Numbered from the stretch's first letter, positions 13,621 to 47,878 are shown. The stretch: 64,000 nucleotides of DNA from an uncultured Verrucomicrobiae bacterium (GCA_963804425.1 CAWDQF010000003.1:134722-198721), one strand, 5' to 3'. Notes: a model not told the origin generated them from the sequence alone. Numbers and translations: made by a program.

Positions 13621-13638
13621 TATAATTCTTCGGGTAAT

Positions 13639-14553: not shown

Positions 14554-14582
14554 TTGTGTTGTATTATGATAATAACATAATA
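14554..14582 (+). promoter_or_regulatory. candidate sigma70-type promoter in the AT-rich leader of the T4SS operon
   Basis: TTGTGT (14554) - 17 nt - ATAATA (14577), inside an unusually AT-rich ~80-nt stretch just upstream of the pilin gene. Confidence 0.25.
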
Positions 14583-14597
14583 TATCTAAGATATTTT

Positions 14598-14936: not shown

Positions 14937-14964
14937 CATCTGCGAACACTCATCCGAGCTAGTT

Positions 14965-18508: not shown

Positions 18509-19341
18509 AGACTCAAATATTGAAGTGGTCTTTCATAGTGTTCATTTGTTCCGCGGTCTGTGCCACCGGTAAAGCCTACACCGTTCACGATCCAATTCAC
18601 ACGGTGCTCAATATCTTACAGCAGGTAATTGGACAGGTGCGACAGGAACTTCAACACGCTGAGGATGTCGCCAAATACGCGGAGATGATCGAAAAGCAGA
18701 TGCAACAAATTCAGCAACTAACCACGATGATTAATCAAAACGTGGAGCAGCTGCGCCGCATTGGCGATCCGAACACCTACGTCAACATGTTAGGGCTAGA
18801 TACTCTATTCAACGAAATGAGCCGAATCAAAAACGGAGTCGGCACTACGATGGCAGAGTTTCAACACACCGTCGATGGAGTCGCTGCTCTCAAAGACACT
18901 GCCAACGGCCTATATCAAGATCTTAGCCAGGTGCCCGATCGGTTCGGGAAGACGGTCCAATACGATGTAAACAGCTTTAAACGGTTCGGAGCGGTCCAGG
19001 ACATGTATAAGTCTTTTAATACGGAAATCGAGCAGGCAAATCGTTCGCTGGCGGTTCTTCAGCAAGAGAAACAGAGCAGCTTACAACAATTAAATTCAGC
19101 CGGTTCCCTAATCGAAGTCCAGAAACTTACAGGCAAGTTGCATGCAATTGAGTCTAGCATTCAGGACACAACTGCCCGAATAGACATGGCTGCGCAGAAG
19201 ACGCTCGTTCAACACGTTGCCAACCAGAACGATCAGCTGCGAATGCAGCAGGCGCTGCTGCAACAACGTTTGCAAGAGGTGGAAGAAGAAAATTTGCAAA
19301 TGCAGCAAAATGCCAACCGGATGCTGCAATCACTAAAATAA
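18505..19341 (+). CDS. TrbJ/VirB5-like protein
   Basis: Signal peptide, then VHDPIHTVLNILQQVIGQVRQELQ... and a Gln-rich coiled coil. This resembles the (I/V)xDxxNxxQ...Q start of TrbJ. It precedes a TrbL-like gene, as in Trb operons. Confidence 0.65.
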   Translation: MKTQILKWSFIVFICSAVCATGKAYTVHDPIHTVLNILQQVIGQVRQELQHAEDVAKYAEMIEKQMQQIQQLTTMINQNVEQLRRIGDPNTYVNMLGLDTLFNEMSRIKNGVGTTMAEFQHTVDGVAALKDTANGLYQDLSQVPDRFGKTVQYDVNSFKRFGAVQDMYKSFNTEIEQANRSLAVLQQEKQSSLQQLNSAGSLIEVQKLTGKLHAIESSIQDTTARIDMAAQKTLVQHVANQNDQLRMQQALLQQRLQEVEEENLQMQQNANRMLQSLK

Positions 19342-19348
19342 CTAACTT

Positions 19349-20695: not shown

Positions 20696-20708
20696 CTAGC
20701 GGCACACA

Positions 20709-29019: not shown

Positions 29020-29646
29020 ATGTCCCTCATTAATTTCGTAAGTGGAGAGGTGGAGTTCAAGATCGTTTACTATGGTTGCGCGCTTGGTGGGAAGACGTCG
29101 TCTCTCGGTTATGTTCACGAGAGAGTCGATGCCCAAGATAGAGGGAATTTAGTGTTGCTGCCGACGCAGAACGATCGCACGCTATTCTTCGATTTCTTGC
29201 CGGTAGATGGTGGCACCGTCAAAGGGTTCAAAGTAAGATTCAAACTTTGGACCGTTCCCGGACAGGTGATGTACAACGCTACCCGGCAGCTTGTGCTTCG
29301 AGGTGTGGATGGAGTCGTTTTCGTGGTCGACTCCCAGTGGGACCGGATGGAGGCGAATGTTGAAAGCCTGAGGAACCTCGAAGAAAACCTCGCGGCGATG
29401 GAGTTGAGCCTAGAAAAGGTGAGCTTCGCCTTCTTCTATAATAAGTGCGACTTACCGGAGGAAAGCATAGCTCCAGTCGAGGCGATCGATCTGCTCCTCC
29501 GGCGCAGAATCGAGAAGGTCAAGCGGTTTGCCGGAGATTGTATCAGTGGGAAGCACGTCTTCAACGTGTTAAACCAGGTAACCCAGAATGTCCTAGGTGA
29601 ATTCTTGGTGAAGGATGATCTGGAGAATTATGAGGCCTACCGTTAA
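29020..29646 (+). CDS. mglA: MglA-like Ras-superfamily small GTPase
   Basis: Near-colinear with my recollection of Myxococcus MglA: INF..GE...KIVYYG...GGKT, DRTLFFDFLP, LWTVPGQVMY (the TVPGQ switch-2 variant), GVDGVVFVVDSQ..RMEAN.ESL.NL. Confidence 0.9.
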   Translation: MSLINFVSGEVEFKIVYYGCALGGKTSSLGYVHERVDAQDRGNLVLLPTQNDRTLFFDFLPVDGGTVKGFKVRFKLWTVPGQVMYNATRQLVLRGVDGVVFVVDSQWDRMEANVESLRNLEENLAAMELSLEKVSFAFFYNKCDLPEESIAPVEAIDLLLRRRIEKVKRFAGDCISGKHVFNVLNQVTQNVLGEFLVKDDLENYEAYR

Positions 29647-30025
29647 TGCTAAAAAACAGCGCTCTGTTCGACCGCCGGCAAATGCCGGTTTTTCTTTGGT
29701 TGAGATCCTGGTGGTATTGGCGATTGTCGCGATCGCTGCAGGCTTCATCGCCATCTCTATTTTGAGCGCACTGAAGCAACAGAATAGTCGGATGTGCCTG
29801 ACGAACATGCTCACAATTGAGGCTGCTAAAGATGAATATGCGCGAGATCATCCCGGCTCAACTTCAATAGCGAGCGTAGCGGAATTCGCGCCTTACTTTC
29901 GCTTTGGCATCCCTCGTTGCCCGGACAACCAGGCAAATAATTACAATAACCTGTTGGATCTAAGGAGCCTGGTTAGTTGCTCCATCCATCCGGAGAATTC
30001 CACGAAATTGAGCGCCGGAAAGTGA
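29630..30025 (+). CDS. prepilin-type N-terminal cleavage/methylation domain protein (pseudopilin-like)
   Basis: G|FSLVEILVVLAIVAIAAG is the class III signal and hydrophobic helix. The start overlaps the mglA end by 17 nt. Confidence 0.8.
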   Translation: MRPTVNAKKQRSVRPPANAGFSLVEILVVLAIVAIAAGFIAISILSALKQQNSRMCLTNMLTIEAAKDEYARDHPGSTSIASVAEFAPYFRFGIPRCPDNQANNYNNLLDLRSLVSCSIHPENSTKLSAGK

Positions 30026-31077
30026 AGAACGCAGGCACGGCCGTTCAGCAGCGTTGGAAGACCATCGTCGATTTCGTGAGTACGCACGAAGTCAGTGATG
30101 TTTCGCTTTTCCGGGGCAATGTCTCGGCTCGGCTAGAAGGGCAAATCGTGCCGTTAGCAGAGCCTGGTGCGCTGTTAGAGCAGGAGGTCCAATTCATGAT
30201 CGGTGAATTGGTGAGGGACCGACCTCGTCTGCATGAACAGCTGTCGGCGAGCCAAAAATCAATCGATTTCACAGCGGTGTGCCACGGTAAACGATTTCGA
30301 GTTAACATTGCTCTCGCTCAAGGAGGGCTTTTCGCATCGTTGCGTCCGCTTCCCGACGCGCCACCAGTGCCCGACGACGTGGGTCTTACCGGTCAAATCA
30401 CAAAGTTCGTAACCTCACTAAGTGAAGGACTAATCCTGATTTCTGGCCCGACTGGTTCCGGCAAAACTACCACCATTGCTTGTTTAATCGAAGCAATTAA
30501 TCAAACGCGTCAATCCAAGATTGTGACCATAGAAGATCCGATCGAATTTCTTTTTTCAGGCAAACAATCAGAAATCATCCAACGCGAGGTTGGAGCCGAC
30601 GTCGAATCGTATTCGACTGGGCTGCGCGAGGCTCTGCGACAAAACCCGGACGTGATAGTCGTCGGTGAAATTCGCGACGCTGAAACTGCGATGGTTGCGC
30701 TTCAAGCAGCCGAGACCGGGCATTTGGTTATTGGATCACTGCATGCGAGAAGCGTGGTGGAAACGGTCACACGCTTTGTGTTGTTGGCTCCTGAGAAAAG
30801 TTCGGCGGAAGTGAGGCACGTTTTCGGGACAAGCATGCGCCTGCTGGCAAATCAGCGACTCCTGCGCAAAAGGCACGGAGGGCGAGTTGCGATACGAGAA
30901 ATTTGCGTTCACGCGCCCAAGGTCGAATCGGTGATTCTGTCCGGCAACGAGCAGGAATTGGACAACTACATGTTAAGTGGTAGGAACTTAGGAATGATCG
31001 ATTTTCAGACGGCACTCCGACAGCTCCAGGCTCAGCTGGAACCATCAGAATTCCAGATAAACTTTAGAGGCCGTTGA
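30022..31077 (+). CDS. pilT: PilT/PilU-family (T2SSE superfamily) hexameric ATPase
   Basis: GPTGSGKTTT Walker A, IVTIEDPIEF, REVG, QNPDVIVVGEIRD (Walker B/Asp box), GHLVIGSLHA (His box). A GTG start at 30022 forms a GTGA overlap with the upstream stop; ATG 29977 is the alternative. Confidence 0.88.
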   Translation: MKNAGTAVQQRWKTIVDFVSTHEVSDVSLFRGNVSARLEGQIVPLAEPGALLEQEVQFMIGELVRDRPRLHEQLSASQKSIDFTAVCHGKRFRVNIALAQGGLFASLRPLPDAPPVPDDVGLTGQITKFVTSLSEGLILISGPTGSGKTTTIACLIEAINQTRQSKIVTIEDPIEFLFSGKQSEIIQREVGADVESYSTGLREALRQNPDVIVVGEIRDAETAMVALQAAETGHLVIGSLHARSVVETVTRFVLLAPEKSSAEVRHVFGTSMRLLANQRLLRKRHGGRVAIREICVHAPKVESVILSGNEQELDNYMLSGRNLGMIDFQTALRQLQAQLEPSEFQINFRGR

Positions 31078-31175: not shown

Positions 31176-33284
31176 CTAACCGCCGCTTCCGCCATAGCTC
31201 CTGAGCGTTTCAAGAAACGCGGGGACATATTTCTCGGCTTTGAACTCTCCGACGCCACGGATACGGCGGGCGGCCTCGACGGATTGGGGCCGGATCCGAG
31301 CGAAGGCCTTAAGGGTTTCGTCCGGGAAAATGGCGTAGGCGGGAAGATTGCCGTGGACCTGGGCCAGCTCGGAACGTTTCTGGCGGAGCGCCTCGAAGAG
31401 GGCTTGATTGAACGGAGCTTCGACTTGCGGGTCGTTCACTGCGTCGCGCGGGGGTTTGCGCCGAGCCTGCTCAGGCCAGACCAGTTCACAGTTTGCGCGA
31501 CCGTGCATTACCTCGATCCCCAAAACCGTGAGCGTGATGGTGGGATACTGGTCGCCGGTGGATTGAAGCAAACCGCCGAGTTCGAGCTCGCGGAAAAGTT
31601 GGTAAAGAAACTTCGGGGGAAGCTCTTTCAGGAGACCGAAGGTCGACAGAGCGTGGAGGTTGAGCTGGATCAATTCTGGGGTTTGGTTGCCAACCAAGGC
31701 TTGAATGATTCGGCTCCGGCCAAAGCGAGGTAGAAAGCCGTCCCCTTGCCGGATCGACATCCGCGCCACTCCGCTTAACGCCTTGCGAACCGTGGTTAGT
31801 TGGTCGCGACCGAGGGGGCGCACTTCCCGGGTAGGAGTACCGACGCAATGGTCGCAGGCGCCGCACTTGGAGGTATCCGAATCACCAAAGTAGCGTAGCA
31901 TGACCTGTTGGCGGCAATCCCGAGAGAAGGCGTAATCGATGACCGCCTTCAGTTTCGCGCGATCCCGTCGTTCCTTTTCTTGGAGGTACTGGCGGTCAAT
32001 CGGGAGCTGGTGCGGTCGCAGACCGCGTCGCCGCACCCGGATGACCCGACTGCGGCCGGCGAGGTCGTCTCGATCGAGAATCCCGGCGCGATCGAGCACG
32101 GTGAGCGCTGCCTGCACCGACATCGCGTTGTTCTCGGCATCGAGGCGCGCAGCCAGATCGGACACCGAGGCGAAGACCTCGCCGGATTCATTCGCGAGTT
32201 GGCCCAACAGGAGGTAGAGCCTCGTGATCAGTTCCGACCCCGGGTTGTTACCCGCAATAAAGAATTCATGAATGCGAGTGTCGGCATAGTTGAACAGAAG
32301 TTCGCAGATGGCCGGTTCGCCGTCGCGACCCGCGCGACCAGCTTCCTGGTAATAGGCTTCGAGTGATCCCGGAATTTCGAAGTGCGCCACGAACCGAAGA
32401 TCCGGGCGATCGATCCCCATACCGAAAGCGTTAGTCGCAACGACCACGTCGCACTGATCTTGGGTGAAACGGTTTTGGGCTGCTTCCCGGGCAGCATCAT
32501 CGATCCCACCATGGTAGCGTACCACTCGGACTTTGAGGCTTTCGAGATGGTCGGCGACCTGGTCGACGCGTTTGCGCGTGGCGCAATAGACAATGCCCGT
32601 GCGTTGCTGCTCGACCAGCTCGCGTAAACGTTGGTACTTCGCTGCTTCGCTCGCGGTGTCGGTCACTATGAATCGGAGGTTCGGGCGACCGAATCCGGCC
32701 ACAAAAATCTTCGGATCGGCTAACCCCAGGCAATGGACAATATCGGCGCGTACCTCCGGGGTAGCCGTGGCGGTAAACGCGCCGACCCGGGGCCGGCCGA
32801 GCTGGTCTAGCACCGAGCCGAGCCGATAATAGTCCGGCCGGAAGTCGTGACCCCACTGGGAAACGCAATGGGCTTCGTCTACGGCGAAGAGCGAGATGGA
32901 AACCTCGCCCAAAGCTTGTACAAATGTGCCGCTCCGGAATCGTTCGGGTGCAATGTAAATTAGCCGGAATTCGCCGGCCTTGAGGGCGCGGATCCGTTGC
33001 TTTTGGTCGGCCAATCTCAAGGTGCTGTTGATGAAAGTGGCCGGGATGTCGCGCGCTAGAAGTCCGTCCACCTGATCTTTCATCAGCGCGATCAACGGAG
33101 AGACCACGACCGTGACTCCTTCCAGCAACAGAGCAGGCAACTGATAACAGAGCGATTTACCGCCTCCGGTTGGCATCAAGACGAAGACGTCATCCCCGGC
33201 CATGATTCGGGCAATGATCTCCGCCTGCGGTTCCCGGAACTCTGTGAAGCCGAAGTATTGCTCGAGGGCGGTTTGCGGGAGCAT
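31176..33284 (-). CDS. recQ: ATP-dependent DNA helicase RecQ
   Basis: [33 protein letters not shown], the zinc-binding Cys cluster (CxxCDxC), and a C-terminal HRDC-like region. Start moved to [12 protein letters not shown]. Confidence 0.93.
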
Positions 33285-33632
33285 GCGAGTTATGTTCCAC
33301 GTTCCATGTTTAACGGAATAGGAACAGGATATATTTGTATCATACGGAAAAGAAGTTTGGAAATTGGTTAAAGGACCTAGAAGTAGGGGACGCCGCGAAT
33401 TCTTCAACTTGCGTCGGTTCTCGCCGCCGCAAAACTCGGCAAGGTTAGCCTAGCCGATGCCAGCCACCCTGATCGGCCTGTCTGAAAATGTGAATTTCAA
33501 GTTTCGAGTCAACTACATGAATTGGAAGACTACAGATTAAGCGACAGGCGCCTGGGAAACCGATTTTCAAACGCGCCGCCAGATTGAGGGTCAACTGGAG
33601 CCTTCCGAGTTCGAAACAAACTATAGGGCTCG

Positions 33633-35489
33633 CTAAAACCAGCGACGCCAGAATGGGTACCAAGATGGCGTGTTGCCTTCCGCGTCGATCGGGTGAATTC
33701 GCCTTTTCCGGTATCCCTTTTCGCAATGCTTTACGATCGCTGTGAATTTTGGAAGTGACATCAATTCGAACGGCTTAATCAGATACTCTTCTTCTTGGGT
33801 GCGGGTTGTGCTGTGATTTCCCCGACCTCGAGTGTAGGACCGCTTCCAATGCATTCGTTTTCCGACAAAGTCGGCAGAGCTTTCCGCGCAGCTTCGGTCA
33901 GCTGCTTTAAAAATAATACGGTTTCGTAAGTTAAGAATAGTGACTTCCGCTTTTTCTTTTGAACCGAGAGCCGGCAAAAAAGAGAGTTTCGATTGAGCCG
34001 CGAGAACCGTCGTTGTCCGCGCTTGGCGAATGACGTCGACATTGCCATCCGATTCGGTGATGAACCGTTGGGCTTCATCTTGCCAACAAATCAGAAGGTT
34101 GTCGTCCTCCAGTTTTCGATTTCCGGACGGTCTTGGATCGAACCGGCGCAGAGCGTGAGTGTAAAAGAGCAATTTTAGAATCGTGGTGATATAGCGGCGC
34201 TCGGTTTGATATTTTTGCGGTAACGAGATGCAAATGATGGCGCCTTCATCCAAGGCGGCAAAATCGAAGCTATTTTCCTCGGCACCGAACACTTCGCTGA
34301 TATCTGGATTCGTGAAGTAGTTGAGATAATTGTAAATCGTTGAGATGACGCCCCCGAGTTGTTCCGCAGGTTGGTGCAAAAATCCGTTCAAGAAATGGTC
34401 GTGACATTCCCGGGCGTCCAGATTGCCTTCGTTTTTCAAGGGTTCGAGTTGCTGCAACATTGCCCTGAGCACCGGTTGGTACTGGAGCATTTCCAGAAGG
34501 TGGTGCATTGTCGGTACCAGTCCAAGCAACCGAAAGAATTGTATCCCTCGTCCGATATTCACATGTGCTTGCGTTTTGAAGAAACCTTTATCTTCGCTGC
34601 CAGACGCCAAAGATGAAGCGGTATCAACAATAACGGTGGCATAGGTGGACCATGGGATTGTTTCGTCAGAAAGAAGGTTAAACCGTGTCGGCGGCGTCCA
34701 GTCGTCGTTGGCCTGATCCGGCCTTGTTTGCAGGAGCAACACGTCCTGTTCGCGTCCATATCGCTTGGCCATCCTCACGAGTGTCTCGTGGTAAATGCCC
34801 TTTTCGTCACAGCAGAGACCCCCCCAGTCTGGCTCGTTCTGAAAGACGCTGTGGAGCAACACATTGATCGCGAAGGTTTTTCCAGCGCCGGTGTCGCCTG
34901 TTATCAGCCAACCGCGACAGAAATCGTTTCGGTCCCAATGAAAGCCAGCTAGCGACGCTGACGTCTGAGACTGGCGGTTCCCGGGAGCAAGGTAAAAGGC
35001 CGAGGGCAAGCTAATCAATATCGGGAGAACACTGATCCAGCCAATGATTGGGTAGAGGAACCAACTAGAAAGTAGTAGCAGACTAGTCAACAACACGACA
35101 ATGGGTGAGAACAGGAAATCAAATCGTTGTCTCTGACGTCCCGTGCAGATCCAGCGCCGTGCTCTGGCAACAGCCTCAGAAAGCGAGACGTCGCTCACCT
35201 CATAACGGCGTACATAACAGAGAGCTCCCTGGGAGCAGATCTGCAGGAGGAACCGGGGAACCGCGACGGTTCCTGTGTTCGAACTCTGAATAAGCGGGAA
35301 CAAGGATTTTGCACGAATCTGAAAGCCTGACCGCTGATCGATCTCTACGAAACCGCGACCGCGCGAGTAGGTTGGGAGCCGCAGCACGGTCCCGTCCGGG
35401 CGGCGGTAAGAAAGCGAGTCCGTAAGATCTGGGCCGTCGATCCGACAGAAGTGCTCGAAAGAATGATCCGCAGTTTTCGCGCTCTCCAT
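33633..35489 (-). CDS. VirD4/TraG/TraD-type type IV coupling protein (T4CP)
   Basis: Two TM helices, then Walker A GDTGAGKT and Walker B LICWQDEAQ. The size and all-alpha insertion are typical of T4CPs. It has an unusual ~120-aa N-terminal extension. Confidence 0.85.
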   Translation of the reverse strand: MESAKTADHSFEHFCRIDGPDLTDSLSYRRPDGTVLRLPTYSRGRGFVEIDQRSGFQIRAKSLFPLIQSSNTGTVAVPRFLLQICSQGALCYVRRYEVSDVSLSEAVARARRWICTGRQRQRFDFLFSPIVVLLTSLLLLSSWFLYPIIGWISVLPILISLPSAFYLAPGNRQSQTSASLAGFHWDRNDFCRGWLITGDTGAGKTFAINVLLHSVFQNEPDWGGLCCDEKGIYHETLVRMAKRYGREQDVLLLQTRPDQANDDWTPPTRFNLLSDETIPWSTYATVIVDTASSLASGSEDKGFFKTQAHVNIGRGIQFFRLLGLVPTMHHLLEMLQYQPVLRAMLQQLEPLKNEGNLDARECHDHFLNGFLHQPAEQLGGVISTIYNYLNYFTNPDISEVFGAEENSFDFAALDEGAIICISLPQKYQTERRYITTILKLLFYTHALRRFDPRPSGNRKLEDDNLLICWQDEAQRFITESDGNVDVIRQARTTTVLAAQSKLSFLPALGSKEKAEVTILNLRNRIIFKAADRSCAESSADFVGKRMHWKRSYTRGRGNHSTTRTQEEEYLIKPFELMSLPKFTAIVKHCEKGYRKRRIHPIDAEGNTPSWYPFWRRWF

Positions 35490-35737
35490 GTGAGGAGATT
35501 AATTAATGTGATCATAAATAACAAGTAATAAAACCGTTGTATTAGTAGGCGATTCGCCTATCCAATGCACCGTCGATCGCCGGTGCAAGGCATCGGAGTG
35601 TTGCCCAAAAGTGCAGAGGGTTTCGCCATACCATATCGATGCGGCCAAATTAATGTAAAATGCGGGATTGCTGAACGGAGGAACCCAAACCGCGCTGGCA
35701 ATGATGACGCCTCTTGGGAGCGGCGCGAGAGCCGCTT

Positions 35738-36175
35738 TTATTTGCCCCAGCGGTTTAAGACAGCGTTGGTAACGGCCTCGCGAACGGCATCGTGTCGCAT
35801 TGCCCACTGGAAATGATAAATCGGATTCTCGTACTGCTCGGCAAATTCTCGCTTCATCGCTTCCGAGATCCGATTCGAATCGATTAGTCCACGCATCCGC
35901 GAAACCACATCCTCGACAATCTCCAAGCAATATAAGATCAACATCTTTGCCGCGCGTTGTGAAATATCATCCAATTCTTCCGTACATACCAAAAAGAAGT
36001 TTTCCCAGGTGACTTTGCTTACGCCCTTGAGCCACTGCTCTTTTCCTTCATAAAACACCCCTTGTTTTCTGTAGTTTTCCAGAAAATCGTCCAAACTGAG
36101 CGGTTGGCCATTGGCCGAGAACGACCATTTTTGAGTTTCGGCCGAAATTTGACGAGTTTCCTTAGTGGCAGCCAT
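35738..36175 (-). CDS. hypothetical protein, paralog of 37052-37627
   Basis: Shares ..(T/W)(P)ENFF.. and the C-terminal RH..VR.AV.NA(V/L)(L/M)NRWG(A)K with the 191-aa protein on the other side of rep. Confidence 0.6.
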   Translation of the reverse strand: MAATKETRQISAETQKWSFSANGQPLSLDDFLENYRKQGVFYEGKEQWLKGVSKVTWENFFLVCTEELDDISQRAAKMLILYCLEIVEDVVSRMRGLIDSNRISEAMKREFAEQYENPIYHFQWAMRHDAVREAVTNAVLNRWGK

Positions 36176-36245
36176 TTTTATTGCTTCTTTTATGGAACAA
36201 TTCGGTTAAAAAGGTCTTGTAACACCCTATCCCAGAGAAAGTAAA

Positions 36246-36980
36246 GTGCGTAAGTATAACAAAGTTTTTGGAACGTTACCACTAGCAGATCAGGACGATC
36301 AGCTCGGTTTCGGTGACGATTTGATCGAGGCCTATTACAAGCTGACTAAGAACGAGCGCAGCATCGTGATGTCGATCGTCGATCGATTGAAACCGGGAGT
36401 CACCGCCTTTGAGTTTGATGATTTCGCTCTCCAGCCCGCCGCGCTGAAACTGCTTACCTACCACCGGTTGGTCCTCCACAATGGGGACAAGCAGAATTCG
36501 GTGCTGTACGCGCGTTGGCTGAGCGCTATCACCATAGTCGAGAAAAAGATGATTCTGCACATCGATCCCGGGTTGCATCGTCATCTCGAACGCTTGAAGG
36601 ACCATCAGAGAGAAGACGCCGAGCGATCTTCTGTGAAACTGGCTAGCCAGTACTCGATTCGCCTGTACGAATGGGCCTGGAGATGGCGCAATGTTGGGTT
36701 AAAGCGGATCTCCATCCCGAAAATTCGCAAGGTGTTGGGCGTCGATGAGGTGCGCGATGCTCAAGGGAATATTGTCAGCGAGAAATGTTTGGTTCACTGG
36801 CCTAATCTCAAACAACGGGCCATCGACCGGGCCTTGCATGAAATTAACGAAAAAACCGATCTCGGAATTCGTTTGGTGGCGGTCGGGCAAGCCAAGTACC
36901 GAAGGGTTCTTTCGCTGGCATTTGAGATCAAGGAGAAAAAGAAACGCACCCGAGGTAACGGAGCGGCTCTGGCCAAGTAA
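36246..36980 (+). CDS. Rep_3/RepB-like winged-helix plasmid replication initiator
   Basis: YSIRLYEWAWRW...ISIPKIRKVLGV...WPNLKQRAIDRALHEINEKTDLGIRLVAVGQAKYRRVLSLAFEI follows the Rep_3 pattern (YaiRLYELl...l.eLr..LGv...y..f..fk.rVl.pA..EIne.tdl.v.y...K.gRkv..l.F.i). GTG start. Confidence 0.7.
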   Translation: MRKYNKVFGTLPLADQDDQLGFGDDLIEAYYKLTKNERSIVMSIVDRLKPGVTAFEFDDFALQPAALKLLTYHRLVLHNGDKQNSVLYARWLSAITIVEKKMILHIDPGLHRHLERLKDHQREDAERSSVKLASQYSIRLYEWAWRWRNVGLKRISIPKIRKVLGVDEVRDAQGNIVSEKCLVHWPNLKQRAIDRALHEINEKTDLGIRLVAVGQAKYRRVLSLAFEIKEKKKRTRGNGAALAK

Positions 36981-37051
36981 AATCGGCAAACTCCTGATTC
37001 TGGCGACGTGAGCCGGAAAGTGCGGGGAAATGCGCTTAAGGAACGCAAAGA

Positions 37052-37627
37052 ATGTACCATGGGCACTCGCCGAAAATGTCAGGCAAGGGCCTGAGCGGCG
37101 ACGAGATTCTCGCGTTGCGAGAGCTGCGGCTCAATTATTCCTACAATTTCGCTGAACCGCCTTACCCTAAAATCCGTTGGGAGCTATTCGAACTAATCAA
37201 TCACGCGCATTTCCCCATGGCTCAGGCGGATGCCTGTGACAAATGGAATTGCCGGGAAATCACGCCCGAAAATTTTTTCCGGATTCTCGATCAGGATCGA
37301 TTGGCAGAACCCGGTTTCTTGAGCGCTTTGACGATCGGCAAACTGGTTTGCTATAGCCTGTTAGTGGCCGAATCGACCAGCGAATCAGTTCACGCTCTCG
37401 CCGAGGGAGTTGAGCTGCGAGCAGACACGTTATTGCAACGGATCCAGCTGAATGCGGATTACTTGAGCTCTGGCATCGAAGAATATTCTCCTTGGCGGCA
37501 ATTCTTTGTCGCCGCGCGCCATCCCGTCGTCCGTTGGGCGGTCAACAATGCTCTCATGAACCGCTGGGGCGCAAAACTGTATCCGGCGCCCGGCGAGGGT
37601 TCGAGTGAAGCGTTTTCTGAACTTTAA
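37052..37627 (+). CDS. hypothetical protein, paralog of 35738-36175
   Basis: See paralog. Its 3' ~160 nt is duplicated in decayed form at 38132-38290. Confidence 0.6.
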   Translation: MYHGHSPKMSGKGLSGDEILALRELRLNYSYNFAEPPYPKIRWELFELINHAHFPMAQADACDKWNCREITPENFFRILDQDRLAEPGFLSALTIGKLVCYSLLVAESTSESVHALAEGVELRADTLLQRIQLNADYLSSGIEEYSPWRQFFVAARHPVVRWAVNNALMNRWGAKLYPAPGEGSSEAFSEL

Positions 37628-37703
37628 TAGGGATTGACTTGGAACTAGTAACAACCCCTCGCTTATAGCTGCTACGCAATTTTACAGATTGCTCCCGCTG
37701 CTG

Positions 37704-38051
37704 TTAGAAAATCTCTGGTTTTTCTGACGCCGTCTCCGTCGAAATACGGATGGAGATCTGCTTTCCTTCGCGGACGAGCGCGACGCGAAAATTGGAAAGT
37801 TCGTCGATCAACTGGCGTCGCCCTAAAAAATCCTGGCCAAGCTCCAATTCGACATCGGCGAATGTGTAACGCAGGGTAATTAACCGCTCACCGTAGGTAT
37901 CGATGCATTGAAGATAGGCATACGGGATGCTCTTCGTACGCGGAGGCGATGCCAGTTGAAATGTGCAAGCGGTTCCCGGACTGTTTCCGGCGTGTAGCAC
38001 ATATGATTGATCCTCCTGGCGAGGGATAGTTATAGCTCTCGAGGCAGACAT
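37704..38051 (-). CDS. unknown conserved protein X, copy 1
   Basis: 115 aa from MSASRAITIP. Colinear with copy 2 (HAGNSPGTACTFQL..PPRTK.IPYAYLQCIDTYGERL..LRY.FADVEL.LG.DFLG.RQLI.ELSNFRVAL.REG). Confidence 0.65.
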   Translation of the reverse strand: MSASRAITIPRQEDQSYVLHAGNSPGTACTFQLASPPRTKSIPYAYLQCIDTYGERLITLRYTFADVELELGQDFLGRRQLIDELSNFRVALVREGKQISIRISTETASEKPEIF

Positions 38052-38076
38052 GTACACGTCGTTCCTGTGCTGCGGA

Positions 38077-38290
38077 TTCAACTATTGCGTGCCTTTTTTG
38101 AAAAATACCGAAGGCGGCGTCAATCCAATTGAGCTCTGGCATCGAAGATTACTCCTTTGGCGGCAAAATTCTGCCACTACGCGAGGATCCCTCGGTGGGC
38201 GGTCACGGGAACCCCCCGGGCGCAAACTGTATCCGGTGCCCACAGGGTAGCTCGATTAAAGCGTTTTCCGAGCTGCGATAGGCCCGACTA
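38077..38290. pseudogene. duplication debris: a folC 3'-end fragment (38077-38129, minus sense) joined to a decayed 3' fragment of the 191-aa gene (38132-38290, plus sense)
   Basis: 38077-38129 aligns with 38736-38786 (folC stop region). 38132-38290 aligns with 37465-37630 but carries indels and frame breaks. Confidence 0.7.
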
Positions 38291-38330
38291 GGGGCGAGTA
38301 CAAACCCGTTGCCTGTAGTTGCTACGGATT

Positions 38331-38699
38331 TTACAGGTCGCCCAGGTGCCGCGAGAAAAGCTCTCGTTTTCCTGAGCGTTTCTCTGTCAAAATGCGGATC
38401 GAAATATGCGTTCCTTCGCGGATGAGCGCGACCCGAAAATTGGAAAGCTCTTCGATTAACTGGCGTTGCCCCAGAAAATCACTCCCGAGTGTCAATTCGA
38501 CATCGGCGAATGCGTAACGCAGCATGGTCAACCTTTCGCCGTAGGTATCGATGCATTGAAGATAGGCATACGGGATGCATTTCGTACGCGGAGGCCAATC
38601 CAGTTGGAATGTGCAAGCGGTTCCCGGACTATTCCCCGCGTGTATCACGTACGGTTGATCATCAGGAAACTGAATAGGTATAGCTATCGCGGCAGACAT
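38331..38699 (-). CDS. unknown conserved protein X, copy 2 (immediately downstream of folC)
   Basis: 122 aa, starting 41 nt downstream of the folC stop on the same strand. Paralog of copy 1. Confidence 0.65.
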   Translation of the reverse strand: MSAAIAIPIQFPDDQPYVIHAGNSPGTACTFQLDWPPRTKCIPYAYLQCIDTYGERLTMLRYAFADVELTLGSDFLGQRQLIEELSNFRVALIREGTHISIRILTEKRSGKRELFSRHLGDL

Positions 38700-38740
38700 T
38701 ATACCTAGTTCCTAAGTTTTTATTGCGCAGGCGGTTTCAA

Positions 38741-39961
38741 CTATTGCGCGCTTTTTTCGAAAACACCGAAATCAGGGTCAATCCAAGCGAGCGCTTCGCC
38801 CACTAGATAGAGCGATCCTGTGACCAGGATCGGGTCACGCAGAGTTCGTGCTTCTTTTATCGCCACTTTGACATCCGCGTAGACTGTTCGCGGCAAATGG
38901 TTCGGAGGGTGGAGTTCGGAGGGGAACGCAGATCGATCATTTTGCACGGGAACCAGGAAAAAGCGAGCGGCGATCTGGGACAGGGCCTCAAGCATTTCGG
39001 TAAGATTCTTATCCTCTAAGCCGCCGAAAATGACGGTGGGCGTCGTGCCGCGATGATATTCCTTCCATGTTTGCACTAGATGCCAACTCGCCGCCGGGTT
39101 GTGCGCACCATCGAGAACCAGGCTGGGTTCTACGTGATGGAAACGACCGGGCCAGAATACCCTGGCAAGCCCGGCTGTAATCGCAAGAGGAGAGACTGTC
39201 AAGTTAGCCTTAGCGATTGTCTCAATGGCGACGGCGGCATTTACCTGTTGATGAACCCCAGCCAGCGCGATGCGCAATGGGGAGACCGGAAATTCCGCGT
39301 AATGAACATGGGTGTGGCGCTCCTGCGCAATCGATTCGAAAACCTTTCGGACTTCAATCGGTTGGGGCGCCGAAACCACCGGGATTCTCTGCTTGATAAT
39401 TCCCGCCTTTTCGCGAGCGATTTCACCTCGAGAATTTCCCAGGAGCCTTTGGTGATCGAGGTCGATCGAAGTCAGGACGGAGACGATAGGCGTGATCAGG
39501 TTGGTCGCGTCTAGGCGGCCGCCTAAGCCAGTTTCTAGAATGACAATATCGACCTTTGACTTAAGAAAATGGAGGAAAGCTAAAGCAGTCGTAATCTCAA
39601 AAAACGACGGAGTGAGTCCCTTCGCTGACATGGAGGCCCGGACTTCACTAAGGCCCTGAACGATCTCCGCATCTGGAATAGAACATCTGTTTACTTGAAT
39701 CCGTTCGTTGTAACGGACCAGATGTGGCGAGGTAAAGAGGCCGGTCTTCAGCCCCGCAGCGCGACAAATAGACTCCAGCATGGCGCAAACCGAACCTTTG
39801 CCGTTGGTTCCAGCGACATGAATAAACCTGAGCGATCGATGAGGATTTCCGAGGGCCTCAGCCAGAGCTTGGATCCCCTCCAGTCCGAGTTTGATGCCGC
39901 GGCTCTGGGTGCGGTAAAGCCAGCTCAGGGTGTCGTCCAACGCCTTTTGAGATGGTGACAC
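38741..39961 (-). CDS. folC: bifunctional folylpolyglutamate synthase / dihydrofolate synthase
   Basis: HVAGTNGKGS P-loop, a Mur-ligase-like middle domain, and LDGAHNP. Confidence 0.92.
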   Translation of the reverse strand: MSPSQKALDDTLSWLYRTQSRGIKLGLEGIQALAEALGNPHRSLRFIHVAGTNGKGSVCAMLESICRAAGLKTGLFTSPHLVRYNERIQVNRCSIPDAEIVQGLSEVRASMSAKGLTPSFFEITTALAFLHFLKSKVDIVILETGLGGRLDATNLITPIVSVLTSIDLDHQRLLGNSRGEIAREKAGIIKQRIPVVSAPQPIEVRKVFESIAQERHTHVHYAEFPVSPLRIALAGVHQQVNAAVAIETIAKANLTVSPLAITAGLARVFWPGRFHHVEPSLVLDGAHNPAASWHLVQTWKEYHRGTTPTVIFGGLEDKNLTEMLEALSQIAARFFLVPVQNDRSAFPSELHPPNHLPRTVYADVKVAIKEARTLRDPILVTGSLYLVGEALAWIDPDFGVFEKSAQ

Positions 39962-39964: not shown

Positions 39965-40810
39965 TTAATTAGCTTCGCCCAAATAATCGAGCAACCGCGA
40001 TAACGTCGAACGCAAATCGGGGCGACGTACGATCAGATCGATAAATCCGTGATCGCGAAGAAACTCGGCCGTCTGAAATCCGTCTGGAAGATCTTGATGG
40101 GTGGTCTCGCGAATCACTCTCGGACCGGCAAAACCTACCATGCATTTTGGTTCGGCTAGAATGAGGTCTCCCAGGGAAGCAAAGCTGGCCATAACGCCTG
40201 CGGTGGTCGGATGGGTCAATACCGAAAGGTAGGGTAGCCCGGCTTCGGCGTGTCGCGCCAAAGCGCCACTCGTCTTGGCCATTTGCATGAGACTAAGCAT
40301 TCCTTCATACATGCGCGCACCGCCGGACGCCGCCACAATAACTACGGGGTGCTTCGCCTTGGTTCCCTTCTCAATGAGTCTGGTTATCTTCTCTCCAACA
40401 ACCGAGCCCATTGTGGCGGCAAGAAAATGAAAGTCCATTACACCGATCGCGACCGGTTTTTTCTCAATTTTGCCGAACCCTGTGACCACGGCATCTTTCA
40501 TACCGGTTTTTTCCTGGTAGCTACTCAAACGTTCCGTGTAAGAGGCGACTCCGGTGAATTTTAAAACATCCATTGAGATCAAGTTTGCATCGAATTCTTC
40601 GAATGAATCGGCATCCAGAAGATTATGGATGCGCTCTGCCGCCGATAGCGTGAAATGGTGATCGCATTTCGGGCAAACCTTCAGATTCTTTGAAAGCTCC
40701 AGGTTGTGAATCACCTCTCCGCAATCGGGACATTTCTGCCAAAGACCTTCCGGCATTTCGCGTTTCTTCTGGGTTCCGGATTTGAGGGAGGGTTTTTGAA
40801 AAATTGCCAT
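39965..40810 (-). CDS. accD: acetyl-CoA carboxylase carboxyltransferase beta subunit
   Basis: Zinc ribbon CPDC...CPKC at the N-terminus, GGARMYEG, and the crotonase-like fold region. Confidence 0.93.
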   Translation of the reverse strand: MAIFQKPSLKSGTQKKREMPEGLWQKCPDCGEVIHNLELSKNLKVCPKCDHHFTLSAAERIHNLLDADSFEEFDANLISMDVLKFTGVASYTERLSSYQEKTGMKDAVVTGFGKIEKKPVAIGVMDFHFLAATMGSVVGEKITRLIEKGTKAKHPVVIVAASGGARMYEGMLSLMQMAKTSGALARHAEAGLPYLSVLTHPTTAGVMASFASLGDLILAEPKCMVGFAGPRVIRETTHQDLPDGFQTAEFLRDHGFIDLIVRRPDLRSTLSRLLDYLGEAN

Positions 40811-40822: not shown

Positions 40823-41542
40823 CTATCCACGGGCGACCGTAACCGCTCGAACCGAGGCTGCTCCACCCGAAAGCAGGACTTTAGCACATTCATGCAAAGT
40901 AGTGCCGGTCGTAAGCACGTCATCGAGTAACAAAACACGTTTCCCAAGCACGGCCGTACTCTTGCCCAGGTCGAAGGCATTGTGCAAGTTTCGGACCCTG
41001 TTGTCTCGATCGAGGATCGTTTGGGTCTGGGTGTAACGCATCCGTCGCAAACACTTCAACAGCGGTTTACCTGCTCTTCGTGCCACAATTTCGCCGAGAG
41101 CGGAGACTTGATCGTACCCTCTCTCCCGGATGCGAACCGGATGAAGCGGTACGGGAACGATCGCGTCAAATGTCTCCTGGGTGATCCGCCGATCCGAGAA
41201 GGCACTCCAAAGCCAGTCAGCGAGAATATTTCGAAGGTGAAATTGTCCGCTGTATTTCAGGCGATGGATTAGTTCGCGGACGGCGCCGCGTGCCAGGTAG
41301 GCCGACACCGCACAATCAAACGCAAAGGCGCGGTCTTCGCAGTTAGGACAGCGAAATGGGTCCTCGATCTCACCGGAGAAAGGGCGCGAGCAGATTTGGC
41401 AAAAAGGCGGTTGGATGCGCTCCGCGGTTGCCCGGCAATGAGCGCATAGCCAGTCTTGATCTAGCCCGGTCTGGCAAATCACGCAGAAATGAGGGTAGAC
41501 TAAGTCAGTAATGGTTTGAGCGAGTTCGCGGAGTAAAAACAC
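40823..41542 (-). CDS. comF: ComF-family protein (double zinc ribbon plus PRTase domain)
   Basis: CxxC...CxxC and CxxC..CxxC motifs N-terminally, and a C-terminal VLLLDDVLTTGTT PRPP-binding loop. Confidence 0.85.
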   Translation of the reverse strand: MFLLRELAQTITDLVYPHFCVICQTGLDQDWLCAHCRATAERIQPPFCQICSRPFSGEIEDPFRCPNCEDRAFAFDCAVSAYLARGAVRELIHRLKYSGQFHLRNILADWLWSAFSDRRITQETFDAIVPVPLHPVRIRERGYDQVSALGEIVARRAGKPLLKCLRRMRYTQTQTILDRDNRVRNLHNAFDLGKSTAVLGKRVLLLDDVLTTGTTLHECAKVLLSGGAASVRAVTVARG

Positions 41543-44212: not shown

Positions 44213-44506
44213 ATGCCGTGGAAGGAAGAAAAGGCGCTGCAACAACAGAGAGAAAGTTTTGTCAAAGAAGCATTCCGCAAGGAGAAGCCATTTAGGGAGC
44301 TGTGTAAGGAGTACCAGATAAGTCGAAAGACGGGATACAAGTGGTGCAAGCGATCTCGGGAAGAGGGAAGCAAGGCACTGGGGGACCGACGGCGAGGTCC
44401 TCGGGAGGGCTCGGCGCAGGTCATCGAGGCCCGCTGGCAGCTGCTGATACTGGAACAGAAAAAAAGTATCCGAGTTGGGGATCGAAAAAGCTCTTTGCTC
44501 GCTTGA
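44213..44506 (+). CDS. IS transposase orfA (HTH part)
   Basis: FRELCKEYQISRKTGYKWCKR is a helix-turn-helix. It ends shortly after an A7 run at 44459-44465. Confidence 0.75.
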   Translation: MPWKEEKALQQQRESFVKEAFRKEKPFRELCKEYQISRKTGYKWCKRSREEGSKALGDRRRGPREGSAQVIEARWQLLILEQKKSIRVGDRKSSLLA

Positions 44507-45390
44507 GACGGCTGCATGGCTCGGAAAAGATTCCCTCGCGAGCGACGATCAGCCGAATTCTGAAGCAATTTGGATTAGTCAAACATCGAACTCGGCGTCG
44601 AGCTAAGGCTGGTCCTGAGCGTCCTGATCCAAGGCGTTTAGAGCCGCTATGGTGTAACGATGTTTGGGGAGTGGATTTCAAAGGCTGGTTCCGCACCGGG
44701 GATGGTCAGAAGTGCCATCCCTTAACGATCAGTGATCTCTACAGTCGCTTTATCATTCGTTGCGATAACTTGAGTTCTTTGGCTCTAGCACCGGTCTGGG
44801 AGAGCTTTGAGATGGTCTTCAAGCACTATGGCCTGCCTCGAGCAATTCGGGTCGATAATGGTAAACCTTTCGCAGGTGGTTGGGTGTTGGGATTGACCCA
44901 GTTAAGCCTTTGGTGGCGCTTACTGGGCATTCAAGTCGATTTTATCGATCCGGGAAAACCCTACCAGAATGGCACTCACGAACGGATGCATTTGAGCCTA
45001 AAGCTCGAGATAGCCAATCCCCCAGCGCGTAGCCTCCAGGCTCAGCGACGTCGGACAACAAAATGGCTCAGGAGTTTTAATGAGGAGCGACCGCACGAAG
45101 CCTTGGGTATGAAAACTCCGGCCGAAATCTACCTGGCTTCTGAGCTCAAATATCACCCTGTTTGGCCCTTCGAATACGATGCCGAATTTGAGGTTCGAAC
45201 CGTCAATTCCAAAGGCGATATCCAGTGGCTCAATAACCGGCGCTTCATTGGAGAGGCCTTTCAAGGTCAACGACTCGGCTTGAGGCGTTACAATGACAAG
45301 ATGCACGAAGTCTATCTCAGCGACATCCTGCTGGGTCACCTGCCCGCCGCGCATTTTTGCCCTTTTCGACCTACGCTCTCAAAGCGCTAA
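44341..45390 (+). CDS. IS transposase orfB (rve/DDE catalytic part; -1 frame relative to orfA)
   Basis: WGVDFKG (D), RVDNGKPF (D), PYQNGTHERMH (E). The functional N-terminus probably comes from a fusion with orfA at the A7 run. Confidence 0.8.
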   Translation: MVQAISGRGKQGTGGPTARSSGGLGAGHRGPLAAADTGTEKKYPSWGSKKLFARLRRLHGSEKIPSRATISRILKQFGLVKHRTRRRAKAGPERPDPRRLEPLWCNDVWGVDFKGWFRTGDGQKCHPLTISDLYSRFIIRCDNLSSLALAPVWESFEMVFKHYGLPRAIRVDNGKPFAGGWVLGLTQLSLWWRLLGIQVDFIDPGKPYQNGTHERMHLSLKLEIANPPARSLQAQRRRTTKWLRSFNEERPHEALGMKTPAEIYLASELKYHPVWPFEYDAEFEVRTVNSKGDIQWLNNRRFIGEAFQGQRLGLRRYNDKMHEVYLSDILLGHLPAAHFCPFRPTLSKR

Positions 45391-46257: not shown

Positions 46258-46355
46258 TACGCAAGAAAAGGCCGCTTTTTAGCGCCAAGTGGGCCGCGGT
46301 TCCAAGAAAGAACTTGATCAAACTGCGGTTTTGGGAGCGTTATACGGATTGGCGG

Positions 46356-47252
46356 ATGAGCGCGAAGATTCTTGCTTTTATTAATTTCAAGGGCGGAGTC
46401 GGCAAAACTGCGAGTGTTGTCAATCTCGGAGCTACTTTGGCTAAGCTTCACGATAAGAAGGTTCTGATTGTTGATCTCGACGCCCAATCAAACTCCAGTC
46501 TCTGGCTGATGCGGCCCGATCATTGGCGAGATCACGTCGCGAAGGGGCGCCGTTCGACTTACCAAATCTTTGACGACGCGATTCAGGGGAAGAGCCGTTT
46601 TAATTTCGAAGAATCAGTGGTCAAAGGAGTCATCACCTGGACTGGCTTTGTGGAATTGCCCCGGCTGCATTTATTGCCGGCATCGGTTGAGTTGCTCCGA
46701 ATAGAGGATCGGATTCATGAACTGCGGGCTCCGAGCGTTTATCGACTGGTTGAGCATGCCTTAGCCGAACATTTGCATGCTTACGATTTCGTGTTTTTTG
46801 ATTGTCCGCCCAATCTCTACAGTACAACCAAGAACGCGATTTTTCTCGCTGATCATTGCATCGTCCCGTACGTTCCGGATTACCTGTCGCTCTCCGGTTT
46901 TCAGGTGCTTGCTGAATATATTACAGAGATGCGAGAGAGGTACGCGGATTCAATTGGGGGCGGCAAGCGCCCGAATATCGGAGCTTTGTTAGTTAGTCAT
47001 TATCGTCAGACTGGTAACGTCTTCCGCCTGGCCATCAATGAATTGGAGATAGAGTTGGCCTCGTTCCGCGACCAAGGATTTGTCGATGGCGACGCCGCCT
47101 TGCTGGAGCCTTATATCCGCCACTGCGTCCGGGTAGCGGAATCCACCAGCGAGCATCTGCCCGTTATTTTATACGCGCCTGGAAGTATCGGAGCGCAGGA
47201 TTACGGCGATCTGGCGCAACGCTTTCTTAACCATTTCCAAAACAGACGATGA
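46356..47252 (+). CDS. parA: ParA/Soj-type partition ATPase
   Basis: Deviant Walker A KGGVGKT in ILAFINFKGGVGKTASVVNLG, then LIVDLDAQSNSS and FFDCPP. Confidence 0.9.
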   Translation: MSAKILAFINFKGGVGKTASVVNLGATLAKLHDKKVLIVDLDAQSNSSLWLMRPDHWRDHVAKGRRSTYQIFDDAIQGKSRFNFEESVVKGVITWTGFVELPRLHLLPASVELLRIEDRIHELRAPSVYRLVEHALAEHLHAYDFVFFDCPPNLYSTTKNAIFLADHCIVPYVPDYLSLSGFQVLAEYITEMRERYADSIGGGKRPNIGALLVSHYRQTGNVFRLAINELEIELASFRDQGFVDGDAALLEPYIRHCVRVAESTSEHLPVILYAPGSIGAQDYGDLAQRFLNHFQNRR

Positions 47253-47878
47253 ACTATCTCGATCTTTCGACAAGGCTATCGCATCTGGCGGAGAGGCTCA
47301 ACAAACAGGCAACAAAGATTGAAGGGTCTGCCGTCGGAAAGTCTGCCATGAGACTGGTTACCGAACTCGAGCATTTCGATTCGGTTTTGGAGAGTTATTT
47401 AGCCAGCCGTAAGTCCGGCGAATTTTTCCTTGAGACGTTGCTGCGCTCGCCTTCCGCGAAGAAACACCTATCGCTTGAATTGCTCAAAAAGGGACTCCGG
47501 GAAATCTGTGGAAAGCGGCTGAAGGCAGAAGAATTTGGTCTAGCCAAGGCTGAATTCGTCGAGGGGGTCCATACCCAGGACAAATCTGCGGCTGCCGTGA
47601 AATTCCTAAAAAACGCGTTTGCAGAGGCCGCTTCGGTTGCGTCGGGCGGAAAGGACAAGGCCGCGCTGCAGCAGGAATTTATTCAGCTCGGTCGGTTGAA
47701 CGAAGAAGAGTTTGCCAAAGTAATCGCTAAGCGGACATTTGGAGAACTGAGACGATTGGCGGGCAGTAACGCGGTGCGTTTTACGGATAAGACGACTAAG
47801 CCACGTCTGATCCAAGTGATTCGCCGTTTTTCCGCCCGGGCAGCGATAAACGCAACTCCGATCCACCTCAGTCGATAG
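47249..47878 (+). CDS. hypothetical protein coupled to parA (ParB-position, not ParB-like)
   Basis: ATGA overlap with the parA stop. 209 aa, helical and Lys/Glu-rich. No ParB box or HTH recognised. Confidence 0.5.
   Translation: MNYLDLSTRLSHLAERLNKQATKIEGSAVGKSAMRLVTELEHFDSVLESYLASRKSGEFFLETLLRSPSAKKHLSLELLKKGLREICGKRLKAEEFGLAKAEFVEGVHTQDKSAAAVKFLKNAFAEAASVASGGKDKAALQQEFIQLGRLNEEEFAKVIAKRTFGELRRLAGSNAVRFTDKTTKPRLIQVIRRFSARAAINATPIHLSR

Follow-up and report, generated by a model that had tools for sequence, protein, structure and literature searches.

We analyzed a 64,000-nt stretch of DNA from an uncultured Verrucomicrobiae bacterium (GCA_963804425.1, CAWDQF010000003.1:134722-198721), which is called the window throughout. 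Near its middle, the genes for a type IV coupling protein (T4CP) and for a Rep_3-family protein (Rep) share one block with genes for four small orphan proteins: p145, encoded between the T4CP and Rep; p191, encoded downstream of Rep; and the related pair p125 and p122, encoded next to folC. A type IV secretion system (T4SS) operon of the mating-pair-formation (Mpf) kind lies upstream. An earlier sequence-only reading had described a plasmid-like module, either an integrated plasmid remnant whose T4CP serves the T4SS operon or a non-canonical transfer or replication module. We show that these genes belong to a chromosomal, relaxase-less T4SS locus of conjugative ancestry that is maintained by selection, and that the T4CP is part of it.

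Coupling protein, Rep_3 protein and orphan partners

The T4CP and Rep_3 assignments, first made from the sequence alone, both pass Pfam thresholds. The product of the T4CP gene is a coupling protein of the VirD4/TrwB type, with matches to TrwB_AAD_bind (37.3 bits, cut-off 20.5) and TraG-D_C (29.8 bits, cut-off 22) and weak NCBIfam matches to VirD4-like, TraD and MobC coupling proteins. Thirteen homologs of 63-84% identity all preserve its Walker A (GDTGAGKT, G198-T205) and Walker B (DEAQ, D471-Q474) motifs without change. The profile matches cover only the C-terminal half of the protein, and its sequence matched no chain in the PDB. An unusual N-terminal extension of ~120 aa precedes the hydrophobic part, where two hydrophobic segments read from the translation occupy approximately residues 125-170, with the long stretch FLFSPIVVLLTSLLLLSSWFLYPIIGWISVLPILISLPSAFYL. 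More than 1000 homologs were found; the best 120 are 64-99% identical and mostly full length, and all named homologs among these 120 are from Chthoniobacterales, some on contigs of up to 1 Mb.

The rep gene encodes a Rep_3-family protein that resembles RepE, pi and RepA. It matches Rep3_N over residues 25-143 (31.0 bits, cut-off 22.4), Rep3_C over residues 160-228 (28.3 bits, cut-off 21.1) and the NCBIfam model RepM (5.5e-16), while its family profile finds R6K pi (2nra, 1.5e-6) and RepE (1rep, 3e-3) in the PDB. The protein has two winged helices (WH1 and WH2), an isoelectric point (pI) of 9.9 and a basic C-terminal tail. Its identities to homologs fall into tiers: orthologs of the clade at 76-97%, then, after a gap, proteins at 38-43%, and finally plasmid Reps at 27-30%. 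The closest characterized relatives are plasmid initiators.

Second, divergent Rep_3 copies (33-43% identity), mostly truncated, are present in the same genomes (L039 and L040), and those of L042-L044 are likewise divergent. The L039 copy retains Rep3_C only and lies in an island (3500-19300) with a pentapeptide-TIR protein, an ATP-dependent DNA ligase, a DruA-transposase fusion and a tyrosine integrase; the L042 copy lies among unannotated open reading frames (ORFs) on a metagenome contig. We rejected these paralogs as ancestors of the module, as most are truncated (L039, L040, L042/L043) and their surroundings, islands or unannotated ORFs, include neither a T4CP nor p145. They have the look of decaying mobile copies, from which the conserved ortholog differs, and they are in keeping with a mobile ancestry.

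The sequence-only reading had also noticed two paralogous genes of unknown function around rep. These are p145 and p191, and the relationship is weak but real (29% identity over 106 residues, E=7e-8), with a shared C-terminal motif ...RH..VR.AV.NA..NRWG (also given as ...HP.VRWAVNNA.MNRWG). p145 is acidic (pI 5.5) and always encoded divergently from Rep. Its homologs number 161; among the 120 listed, the identities are 72-97%, the length is 144-147 aa in almost every case, and all those with a named host are from Verrucomicrobia/Chthoniobacterales. The AlphaFold2 (AF2) model of p145 is mostly helical (pLDDT 82, pTM 0.80) and found no fold match in the PDB by Foldseek (best E 2.5); searches of Pfam, NCBIfam, PHROG and PADLOC returned nothing above noise for this protein. 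Defence-system, phage and RNA libraries gave no meaningful match.

p191 is also acidic, with a median identity of 51.5%. It was found in 18 loci and is missing from about half of the relatives, where Rep abuts p122 (for example, L012). We considered p191 as a hidden HUH relaxase, based on an HAH triplet at residues 52-54. The second histidine is not conserved and therefore p191 is not an HUH nuclease; a conserved HUH motif is absent from both p145 and p191, the proteins examined for it. With p145 helical and without a fold match and the HAH of p191 unconserved, the proposal that an orphan protein replaces the relaxase found no support.

The T4SS operon and its AAA+ ATPase

The operon encodes a VirB2-like pilin, a VirB4/TraC-like ATPase and TrbI/VirB10, together with VirB3-like, lipoprotein, coiled-coil, polytopic VirB6-like, VirB8/9-like and second lipoprotein products. 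Most of these components are without a family match, and none of the operon's proteins matched the VirB11 family. VirB4 is 77-92% identical over 80 metagenome loci and 77-80% identical in distant relatives. On the operon's 5' side, nadC is present in both close and distant relatives. Four loci (L058, L071, L073 and L096) contain two tandem VirB2-like matches at the operon's start, upstream of VirB4, suggesting two pilin genes; the window has one.

A standalone AAA+ ATPase similar to the second nucleotide-binding domain of ClpB (ClpB-NBD2) is encoded directly 3' of the last T4SS gene in every locus that reaches past the operon's 3' end. It matches Pfam AAA_2 (5.7e-26) and aligns to residues 559-828 of ClpB in the PDB (E=2.6e-35), while its ClpB_D2-small match (17.2 bits) is under the 21.9-bit cut-off. 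The protein may be a T4SS-associated unfoldase or energizer. We know of no described T4SS with a ClpB-NBD2-like AAA+ partner.

The locus is conserved and vertically inherited

We collected relatives by scanning one genome per GTDB species with the Rep alignment, yielding 35 orthologous loci, all in metagenome-assembled genomes of Chthoniobacterales/Verrucomicrobiae. In all 35, the gene order is T4CP(-), p145(-), Rep(+), [p191(+)], p122, folC, accD, comF and a Rce1-like gene. The trio of T4CP, p145 and Rep is never split in the loci that extend far enough, despite rearrangements all around it. The setting is chromosomal, with the dcw cluster, accD, folC, recQ and nadC nearby; in L007, the locus lies at 4.26 Mb of a 5.04-Mb contig. 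The sequence-only reading had proposed a comparison of relatives for variability and had named conserved synteny with clear housekeeping annotation as the outcome that would speak against it; the block was conserved and syntenic in 35/35, though without a housekeeping annotation. The side beyond the T4CP does vary: recQ, beside which the module was said to be embedded, occupies that position in the window only, and some other loci have PilT or AI-2E genes there.

The T4SS operon, ending in VirB10, lipoprotein and AAA+ genes, lies directly beside the T4CP in a converging orientation in at least 11 relatives (L012, L015, L017, L022, L025, L027, L032, L036, L037, L055 and L060), which bears out the earlier proposal that the T4CP serves this operon. 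Therefore, the ancestral unit was probably ~22 kb long and ran from nadC through VirB2...VirB10-lipoprotein-AAA+, T4CP-p145, Rep-(p191) and p122 to folC. The window's operon lies 8-9 kb from the T4CP, separated by genes from a glyoxalase to PilT and by recQ. The simplest reconstruction is that these ~9 kb were interposed secondarily; some other lineages are split too.

The module has diverged together with its flanks. Across 20 genomes, the distances of T4CP, p145 and Rep correlated with those of folC, accD and comF (Mantel r=0.887; 0/2000 permutations reached r), with the module diverging at ~0.8x the housekeeping rate, and no pair among these genomes had a near-identical module in a divergent background. 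The locus is vertically inherited and clade-fixed.

We calculated dN/dS against the three closest relatives, where dS was saturated (~1-2) for all genes. Rep had the lowest values (0.014-0.015), followed by p145 (0.03-0.05), accD (0.03-0.045), T4CP (0.05-0.10), p191 (0.08-0.11), p125 (0.08-0.17) and folC (0.10-0.12). The median identities over the loci were 81.9% for Rep, 78.1% for accD, 77.2% for p145 and 67.1% for T4CP. The lowest dN/dS and the highest median identity thus both belong to Rep, which makes it the most constrained gene of the region, and purifying selection on Rep is stronger than on accD.

Control regions of the module

Conserved non-coding DNA was confined to the p145-rep spacer and a -35-like hexamer upstream of the T4CP. 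The p145-rep spacer is 63-71 bp long in all loci and contains a conserved TAACAC..TAAT, with AAAGTAAA directly ahead of the GTG start of Rep. Some lineages carry GTGTAACAC in this spacer, and no robust inverted repeat was found there. GTAACACY occurs five times in the window, with one copy at the locus.

In many relatives, a TTGACA-like hexamer (TTGTTA in the window's lineage) lies at the equivalent place upstream of the T4CP start. A -10-like hexamer follows it after 17 nt in L012 (TATATA), L007 and the window, where the putative -10 ends 6 nt ahead of the ATG. This short distance from the start, the same in all three, suggests that the T4CP mRNA may be leaderless. A scan for consensus promoters and terminators found sites no more numerous than in shuffled sequences and did not call the putative T4CP promoter in the window. 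We rejected an operator inverted repeat at the T4CP promoter as a general feature: although it stands out in L019 (11-bp arms) and L036 (10-bp arms), it beats shuffles in only 4/29 loci.

The T4CP-p145 spacer varies from 116 to 1345 bp across loci and its sequence is unconserved. In L004, a 4.8-kb insertion (4700-9500) separates the two genes; its translations read as a 936-aa ORF that looks like an outer-membrane receptor of the TonB-dependent type, a secreted repeat protein of 328 aa and an 82-aa fragment that copies the N-terminus of the T4CP (ORF 9001-9249). Thus, the T4CP and p145 need not be co-transcribed.

Absence of transfer and replication functions

The sequence-only reading had seen no relaxase, integrase, iteron array or flanking direct repeats, and our scans of the window agree. 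Pfam and NCBIfam scans covering every ORF called in the nadC-folC interval and the majority of the window's other large ORFs found no relaxase family, nor did one appear among the genes that precede VirB2 in L060. In L015 and L036, the AAA+-T4CP gaps hold only a small ORF resembling an outer-membrane protein and a transposase-like ORF, as read from translations rather than profile searches. No integrase or recombinase was found between nadC and folC, and the only one among the other large window ORFs that were scanned was an insertion sequence (IS) transposase. Between 12 and 42 kb, Tandem Repeats Finder (minimum score 30) and a repeat search found no iterons or tandem arrays.

We rejected the locus as a replication origin on the evidence of GC skew: no change of sign occurs there, and the cumulative skew climbs over the window with local dips far from the locus. 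We also rejected an integrative and conjugative element (ICE) inserted at tRNA-Ser or at the 3' end of folC, as the 3' end of tRNA-Ser has no second copy in the window and the folC repeat is a tandem duplication of the window's lineage. The 7-1-7 palindrome TAGGCGATTCGCCTA pointed out earlier is present at 35546-35560 in the T4CP-p145 spacer, but it is missing from the closest relatives, L005 and L007, even at 95% Rep identity, and so gives no support for an origin of transfer (oriT).

The traits of a conjugative element are not seen here: relaxase and oriT are absent from the scans, integrase and attachment (att) repeats likewise, and distribution is not patchy among the sampled loci, which are carriers only. 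For a Rep_3 initiator, the WH1+WH2 architecture is present, while an iteron array and an autonomous-replicon setting are not.

p122, p125 and a lineage-specific tandem duplication

At the right-hand end of the block, the sequence-only reading had overlooked the p125/p122 pair and a tandem duplication. p125 is 76% identical to p122, both are part of the conserved block, and the true start of p125 is likely M11. p122 is present in 32 loci, always between Rep or p191 and folC. An exhaustive hidden Markov model search of 1.84 billion representatives returned only 7 clusters for p122, and its AF2 model, built from a two-sequence alignment, is poor (pLDDT 46) and beta-rich at low confidence. Its conserved motifs are IPY..L..ID, LRY.FADVE and NFRV.

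The duplication spans 37463-38795 as two ~665-bp copies that are ~80% identical (copy A, 37463-38137; copy B, 38129-38795), joined at a microhomology, TTGAGCTCT. It produced displaced pseudo-copies of the folC and p191 3' ends, and both p122 copies are still intact ORFs in the window. Because the relatives have a single p122 copy, the duplication is lineage-specific and not an attachment site.

Gene map and chromosomal surroundings

Table 1. Positions of the T4SS operon, the T4CP-Rep block and adjoining features, counted from the first letter of the window.
Feature	Coordinates	Strand	Length	Remarks
T4SS (mating-pair-formation) operon	14514-24409	+		
VirB2-like pilin	14514-14936	+		
VirB4/TraC-like ATPase	15300-18149	+		
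TrbI/VirB10	22446-23747	+		
ClpB-NBD2-like AAA+ ATPase	24488-25471	+	327 aa	standalone
recQ	31176-33407	-		
T4CP	33633-35489	-	618 aa	VirD4/TrwB type
Putative T4CP promoter	35496-35524	-		-35 TTGTTA 35519-35524, 17-nt spacer, -10 TAATCT 35496-35501
p145	35738-36175	-	145 aa	
p145/rep divergent control region	36176-36245			fixed length, conserved columns in alignment
Rep	36246-36980	+	244 aa	Rep_3 family
p191	37052-37627	+	191 aa	
p125	37704-38081	-	125 aa	lineage-specific p122 duplicate, relatives single-copy; 37704-38051 if started at M11 (likely)
folC 3'-end displaced pseudo-copy	38082-38137	-		last ~18 codons; from repeat families and alignment
p191 3'-end degenerate pseudo-copy	38129-38281	+		start of copy B; from repeat families and alignment
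p122	38331-38699	-	122 aa	
folC	38741-39961	-		
accD	39965-40810	-		
comF-like	40823-41542	-		

The G+C content of the module (0.50-0.53) equals that of its surroundings. The recQ ORF is listed at 743 aa with a TTG start, and its 5' end is probably over-extended, since the helicase domain begins at approximately residue 59. On the same side, 27645-31077 holds a DUF4388/PatA_N protein with an FGE-sulfatase domain, an Arf/MglA-like small GTPase (73-81% identical among relatives), a prepilin-type protein and a PilT-like ATPase. This group moves as one unit and adjoins the T4CP in L001, L009, L010, L028 and L038.

On the other side, an IS-type transposase with an rve/rve_3 integrase core (44341-45390) lies between a class-III aminotransferase gene and TPR/ParA-like genes. 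It is unrelated to the module and is missing from the corresponding position in L001 and L003; two copies of GTAACACT lie just past it, at 45444 and 45468. A ParA/MinD-like ATPase (AAA_31/CbiA) and a 209-aa protein without a family match follow at 46314-47878. L001 and L003 retain this pair in the equivalent place, ~8 kb from rep, and it could be an orphan partition-like pair.

Comparison with known systems

Conjugation-derived T4SSs have been retained in other lineages. In Patescibacteria, a lineage-wide chromosomal T4SS without a relaxase has been interpreted as co-opted (PMC12102498). The window's T4SS resembles this system, the rvh system of Rickettsiales and the X-T4SS with which Xanthomonadales kill other bacteria in being chromosomal, lineage-wide and derived from conjugation, with a VirB4, mostly a VirD4-type T4CP, no associated relaxase and parts that can be scattered in the genome. 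It differs in belonging to another phylum and a very divergent T4SS lineage, in the ClpB-NBD2-like AAA+ gene after the operon, in the missing VirB11 match and in having no known effector or recognition domain. To our knowledge, none of these three systems has a conserved Rep_3 homolog beside its T4CP.

Rep shares its WH1+WH2 architecture, length and basic character with the plasmid initiators RepE of F, pi of R6K, RepA of pPS10 and RepM of Acinetobacter. Unlike these, it is a chromosomal, single-copy ortholog under housekeeping-level constraint that is always paired with an orphan 145-aa gene, with no iterons or origin signature and distant from plasmid Reps in sequence. The arrangement of the module also recalls DNA transfer and replication (Dtr) modules, such as trwA-trwB-trwC of R388 and virD1-D4 of Ti, which place small accessory and DNA-binding proteins beside the T4CP and lie divergent from or adjacent to the Mpf operon. 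In contrast to those, no relaxase or conserved oriT was found here, and the DNA binder is a homolog of replication initiators rather than a protein of the ribbon-helix-helix or IHF type.

The closest plasmid homologs are on the 100-kb plasmid of Opitutaceae TAV5 (CP007054.1), which encodes a VirB4 (27% identity over 96%), a T4CP (29%), a 120-aa lipoprotein and a VirB6-like protein; a Termitidicoccus mucosus plasmid is a further Opitutaceae conjugative plasmid among the nearest relatives. These plasmids are therefore likely mobile relatives of this T4SS type. CP007054.1 differs from the locus in being extrachromosomal, typed MOBF and devoid of homologs of Rep, p145, p191 and p122.

Proposed mechanism and alternatives

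Our best overall reading, which we hold with moderate confidence, is that an ancient conjugative element was fixed and exapted, with the T4CP feeding a co-opted T4SS and with Rep and p145 probably kept to bind DNA or to aid coupling rather than to fire an origin. A conjugative plasmid or ICE with a T4SS of the verrucomicrobial type and Rep_3-driven replication would have integrated between nadC and folC in the ancestor of the clade. Its self-transfer and self-replication functions (relaxase and oriT, iterons and origin) would then have been lost, and the remainder exapted. The T4CP would be an active ATPase that supplies the T4SS with substrates. As no relaxase was found, these substrates are most likely proteins or non-canonical nucleoprotein cargo and not a self-mobilized DNA strand.

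Rep itself would no longer fire an origin and may have been kept as a sequence-specific binder of double-stranded DNA. Rep_3 dimers autorepress at inverted-repeat operators, as with RepE, pi and RepA of pPS10; promoter control is thus the most likely role of Rep, and it would act most probably on the compact divergent promoter region of p145 and rep, and possibly on that of the T4CP. p145, which is acidic, always found with Rep and encoded beside the T4CP, may be a partner or adaptor of either. p191 and p122/p125, which evolve faster and have been duplicated or lost, would be accessory factors and are candidate substrates, adaptors or immunity-like factors.

Several observations weigh against this fixation and exaptation of a conjugative element. 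No substrate, effector domain or secretion signal was identified, and Pfam, NCBIfam, PHROG and PADLOC searches found no effector-like domain in p145, p191 or p122. A binding site for Rep could not be defined, and the inverted repeat at the T4CP promoter is limited to the few loci described above. The link between p145 and the T4CP consists of adjacency, which the insertion in L004 interrupts. A relaxase could be encoded elsewhere in these genomes. Our pattern-based scan samples carriers of the module, and genomes of the clade without it are invisible to the scan. Finally, Rep is as conserved as VirB4 and more so than accD, which would be unusual for a mere regulator and hints at a more central role. 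This constraint beyond what is expected of a regulator keeps two alternatives alive, one in chromosomal housekeeping and one in DNA handling.

In the housekeeping alternative, Rep and p145 were exapted apart from secretion, for replication control, as nucleoid-associated proteins or as a secondary initiator, and the T4CP is a neighbour through ancestry. Rep's dN/dS is the lowest in the region and its conservation exceeds that of accD and of every T4SS component with a tabulated median identity; p145 and rep share a divergent control region of fixed length, while the T4CP has its own putative promoter and is separable from p145 by 4.8 kb. We nevertheless consider this explanation unlikely: the locus has no skew inflection, iterons or sequence like a DNA-unwinding element, the trio is never split where loci extend far enough, and a restriction of the Rep and p145 families to one clade is unusual for a core replication function. 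Quite unlikely, in our judgement, is relaxase-independent DNA handling, where the T4SS would export or import chromosomal or environmental DNA that Rep recognizes and melts before handing it to the T4CP, p145 acting as the coupling adaptor. Such a non-canonical Dtr module would come near the second alternative of the sequence-only reading. DNA transfer without a relaxase is known elsewhere, in Streptomyces TraB and Thermus transjugation, and the conjugative ancestry, the kinship of T4CPs with DNA translocases (the Pfam match is to the TrwB DNA-binding-domain family), the VirB4-level conservation of Rep and the adjacency of Rep, p145 and T4CP wherever the T4CP is visible, with a separable T4SS operon, all fit such a role. 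Against it, the locus lacks iterons and any conserved site of the nic or oriT kind, its conserved non-coding DNA is limited to promoters, and neither p145 nor p191, the proteins examined, has a conserved HUH motif. VirD4-type T4CPs recognize relaxase protein signals and not naked DNA, and we know of no nuclease activity in Rep_3 proteins.

Improbable, though worth naming, is that the Rep_3 initiator was domesticated as a working part of the T4SS, either as a DNA-selecting and DNA-melting factor of relaxase-independent export or uptake or as DNA-binding cargo that the T4SS delivers; the cargo version draws on Rep's basic C-terminal tail and on its being always encoded with an acidic partner and a T4CP. 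Least probable by far is a recently integrated plasmid remnant between recQ and folC, decaying or still mobile, which we regard as effectively refuted. Rep_3 and T4CP are hallmark plasmid genes, the duplicated 3' end of folC superficially resembles an att duplication and a tRNA-Ser lies near the T4SS operon. Yet the synteny holds in 35/35 relatives, module and flanks have diverged together, dN is very low against a saturated dS, the G+C content is that of the surroundings, neither an integrase nor a tRNA repeat was found, and the folC repeat belongs to the 665-bp tandem duplication of the window's lineage. The origin that the sequence-only reading proposed does stand in part: a plasmid or conjugative source is plausible, given the homologs on Opitutaceae plasmids and the plasmid initiators among Rep's kin, while the synteny, the co-divergence and the dN/dS of Rep contradict a remnant.

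Implications

Annotators of these genomes should not take a 'plasmid replication initiation protein' together with a 'T4CP' as the mark of an integrated plasmid or ICE. The analysis also defines two orphan families, p145/p191 and p122, for which association with this locus is the sole functional lead.

The locus is a natural example of what survives once a chromosome has permanently taken in a conjugative plasmid. Lost are the relaxase and oriT, the iterons and the integrase; the Mpf genes, the T4CP and, unexpectedly, the initiator were kept, with the initiator the most constrained of all, which makes the exaptation of a Rep_3 protein testable here. Chthoniobacterales are a prominent soil group with hardly any cultured representatives, and some of the most abundant uncultured bacteria of soil may belong to the clade. 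Full-text literature searches found no description of a contact-dependent or secretion-based lifestyle trait in this clade; a full T4SS and T4CP under strong selection imply that these bacteria have one.

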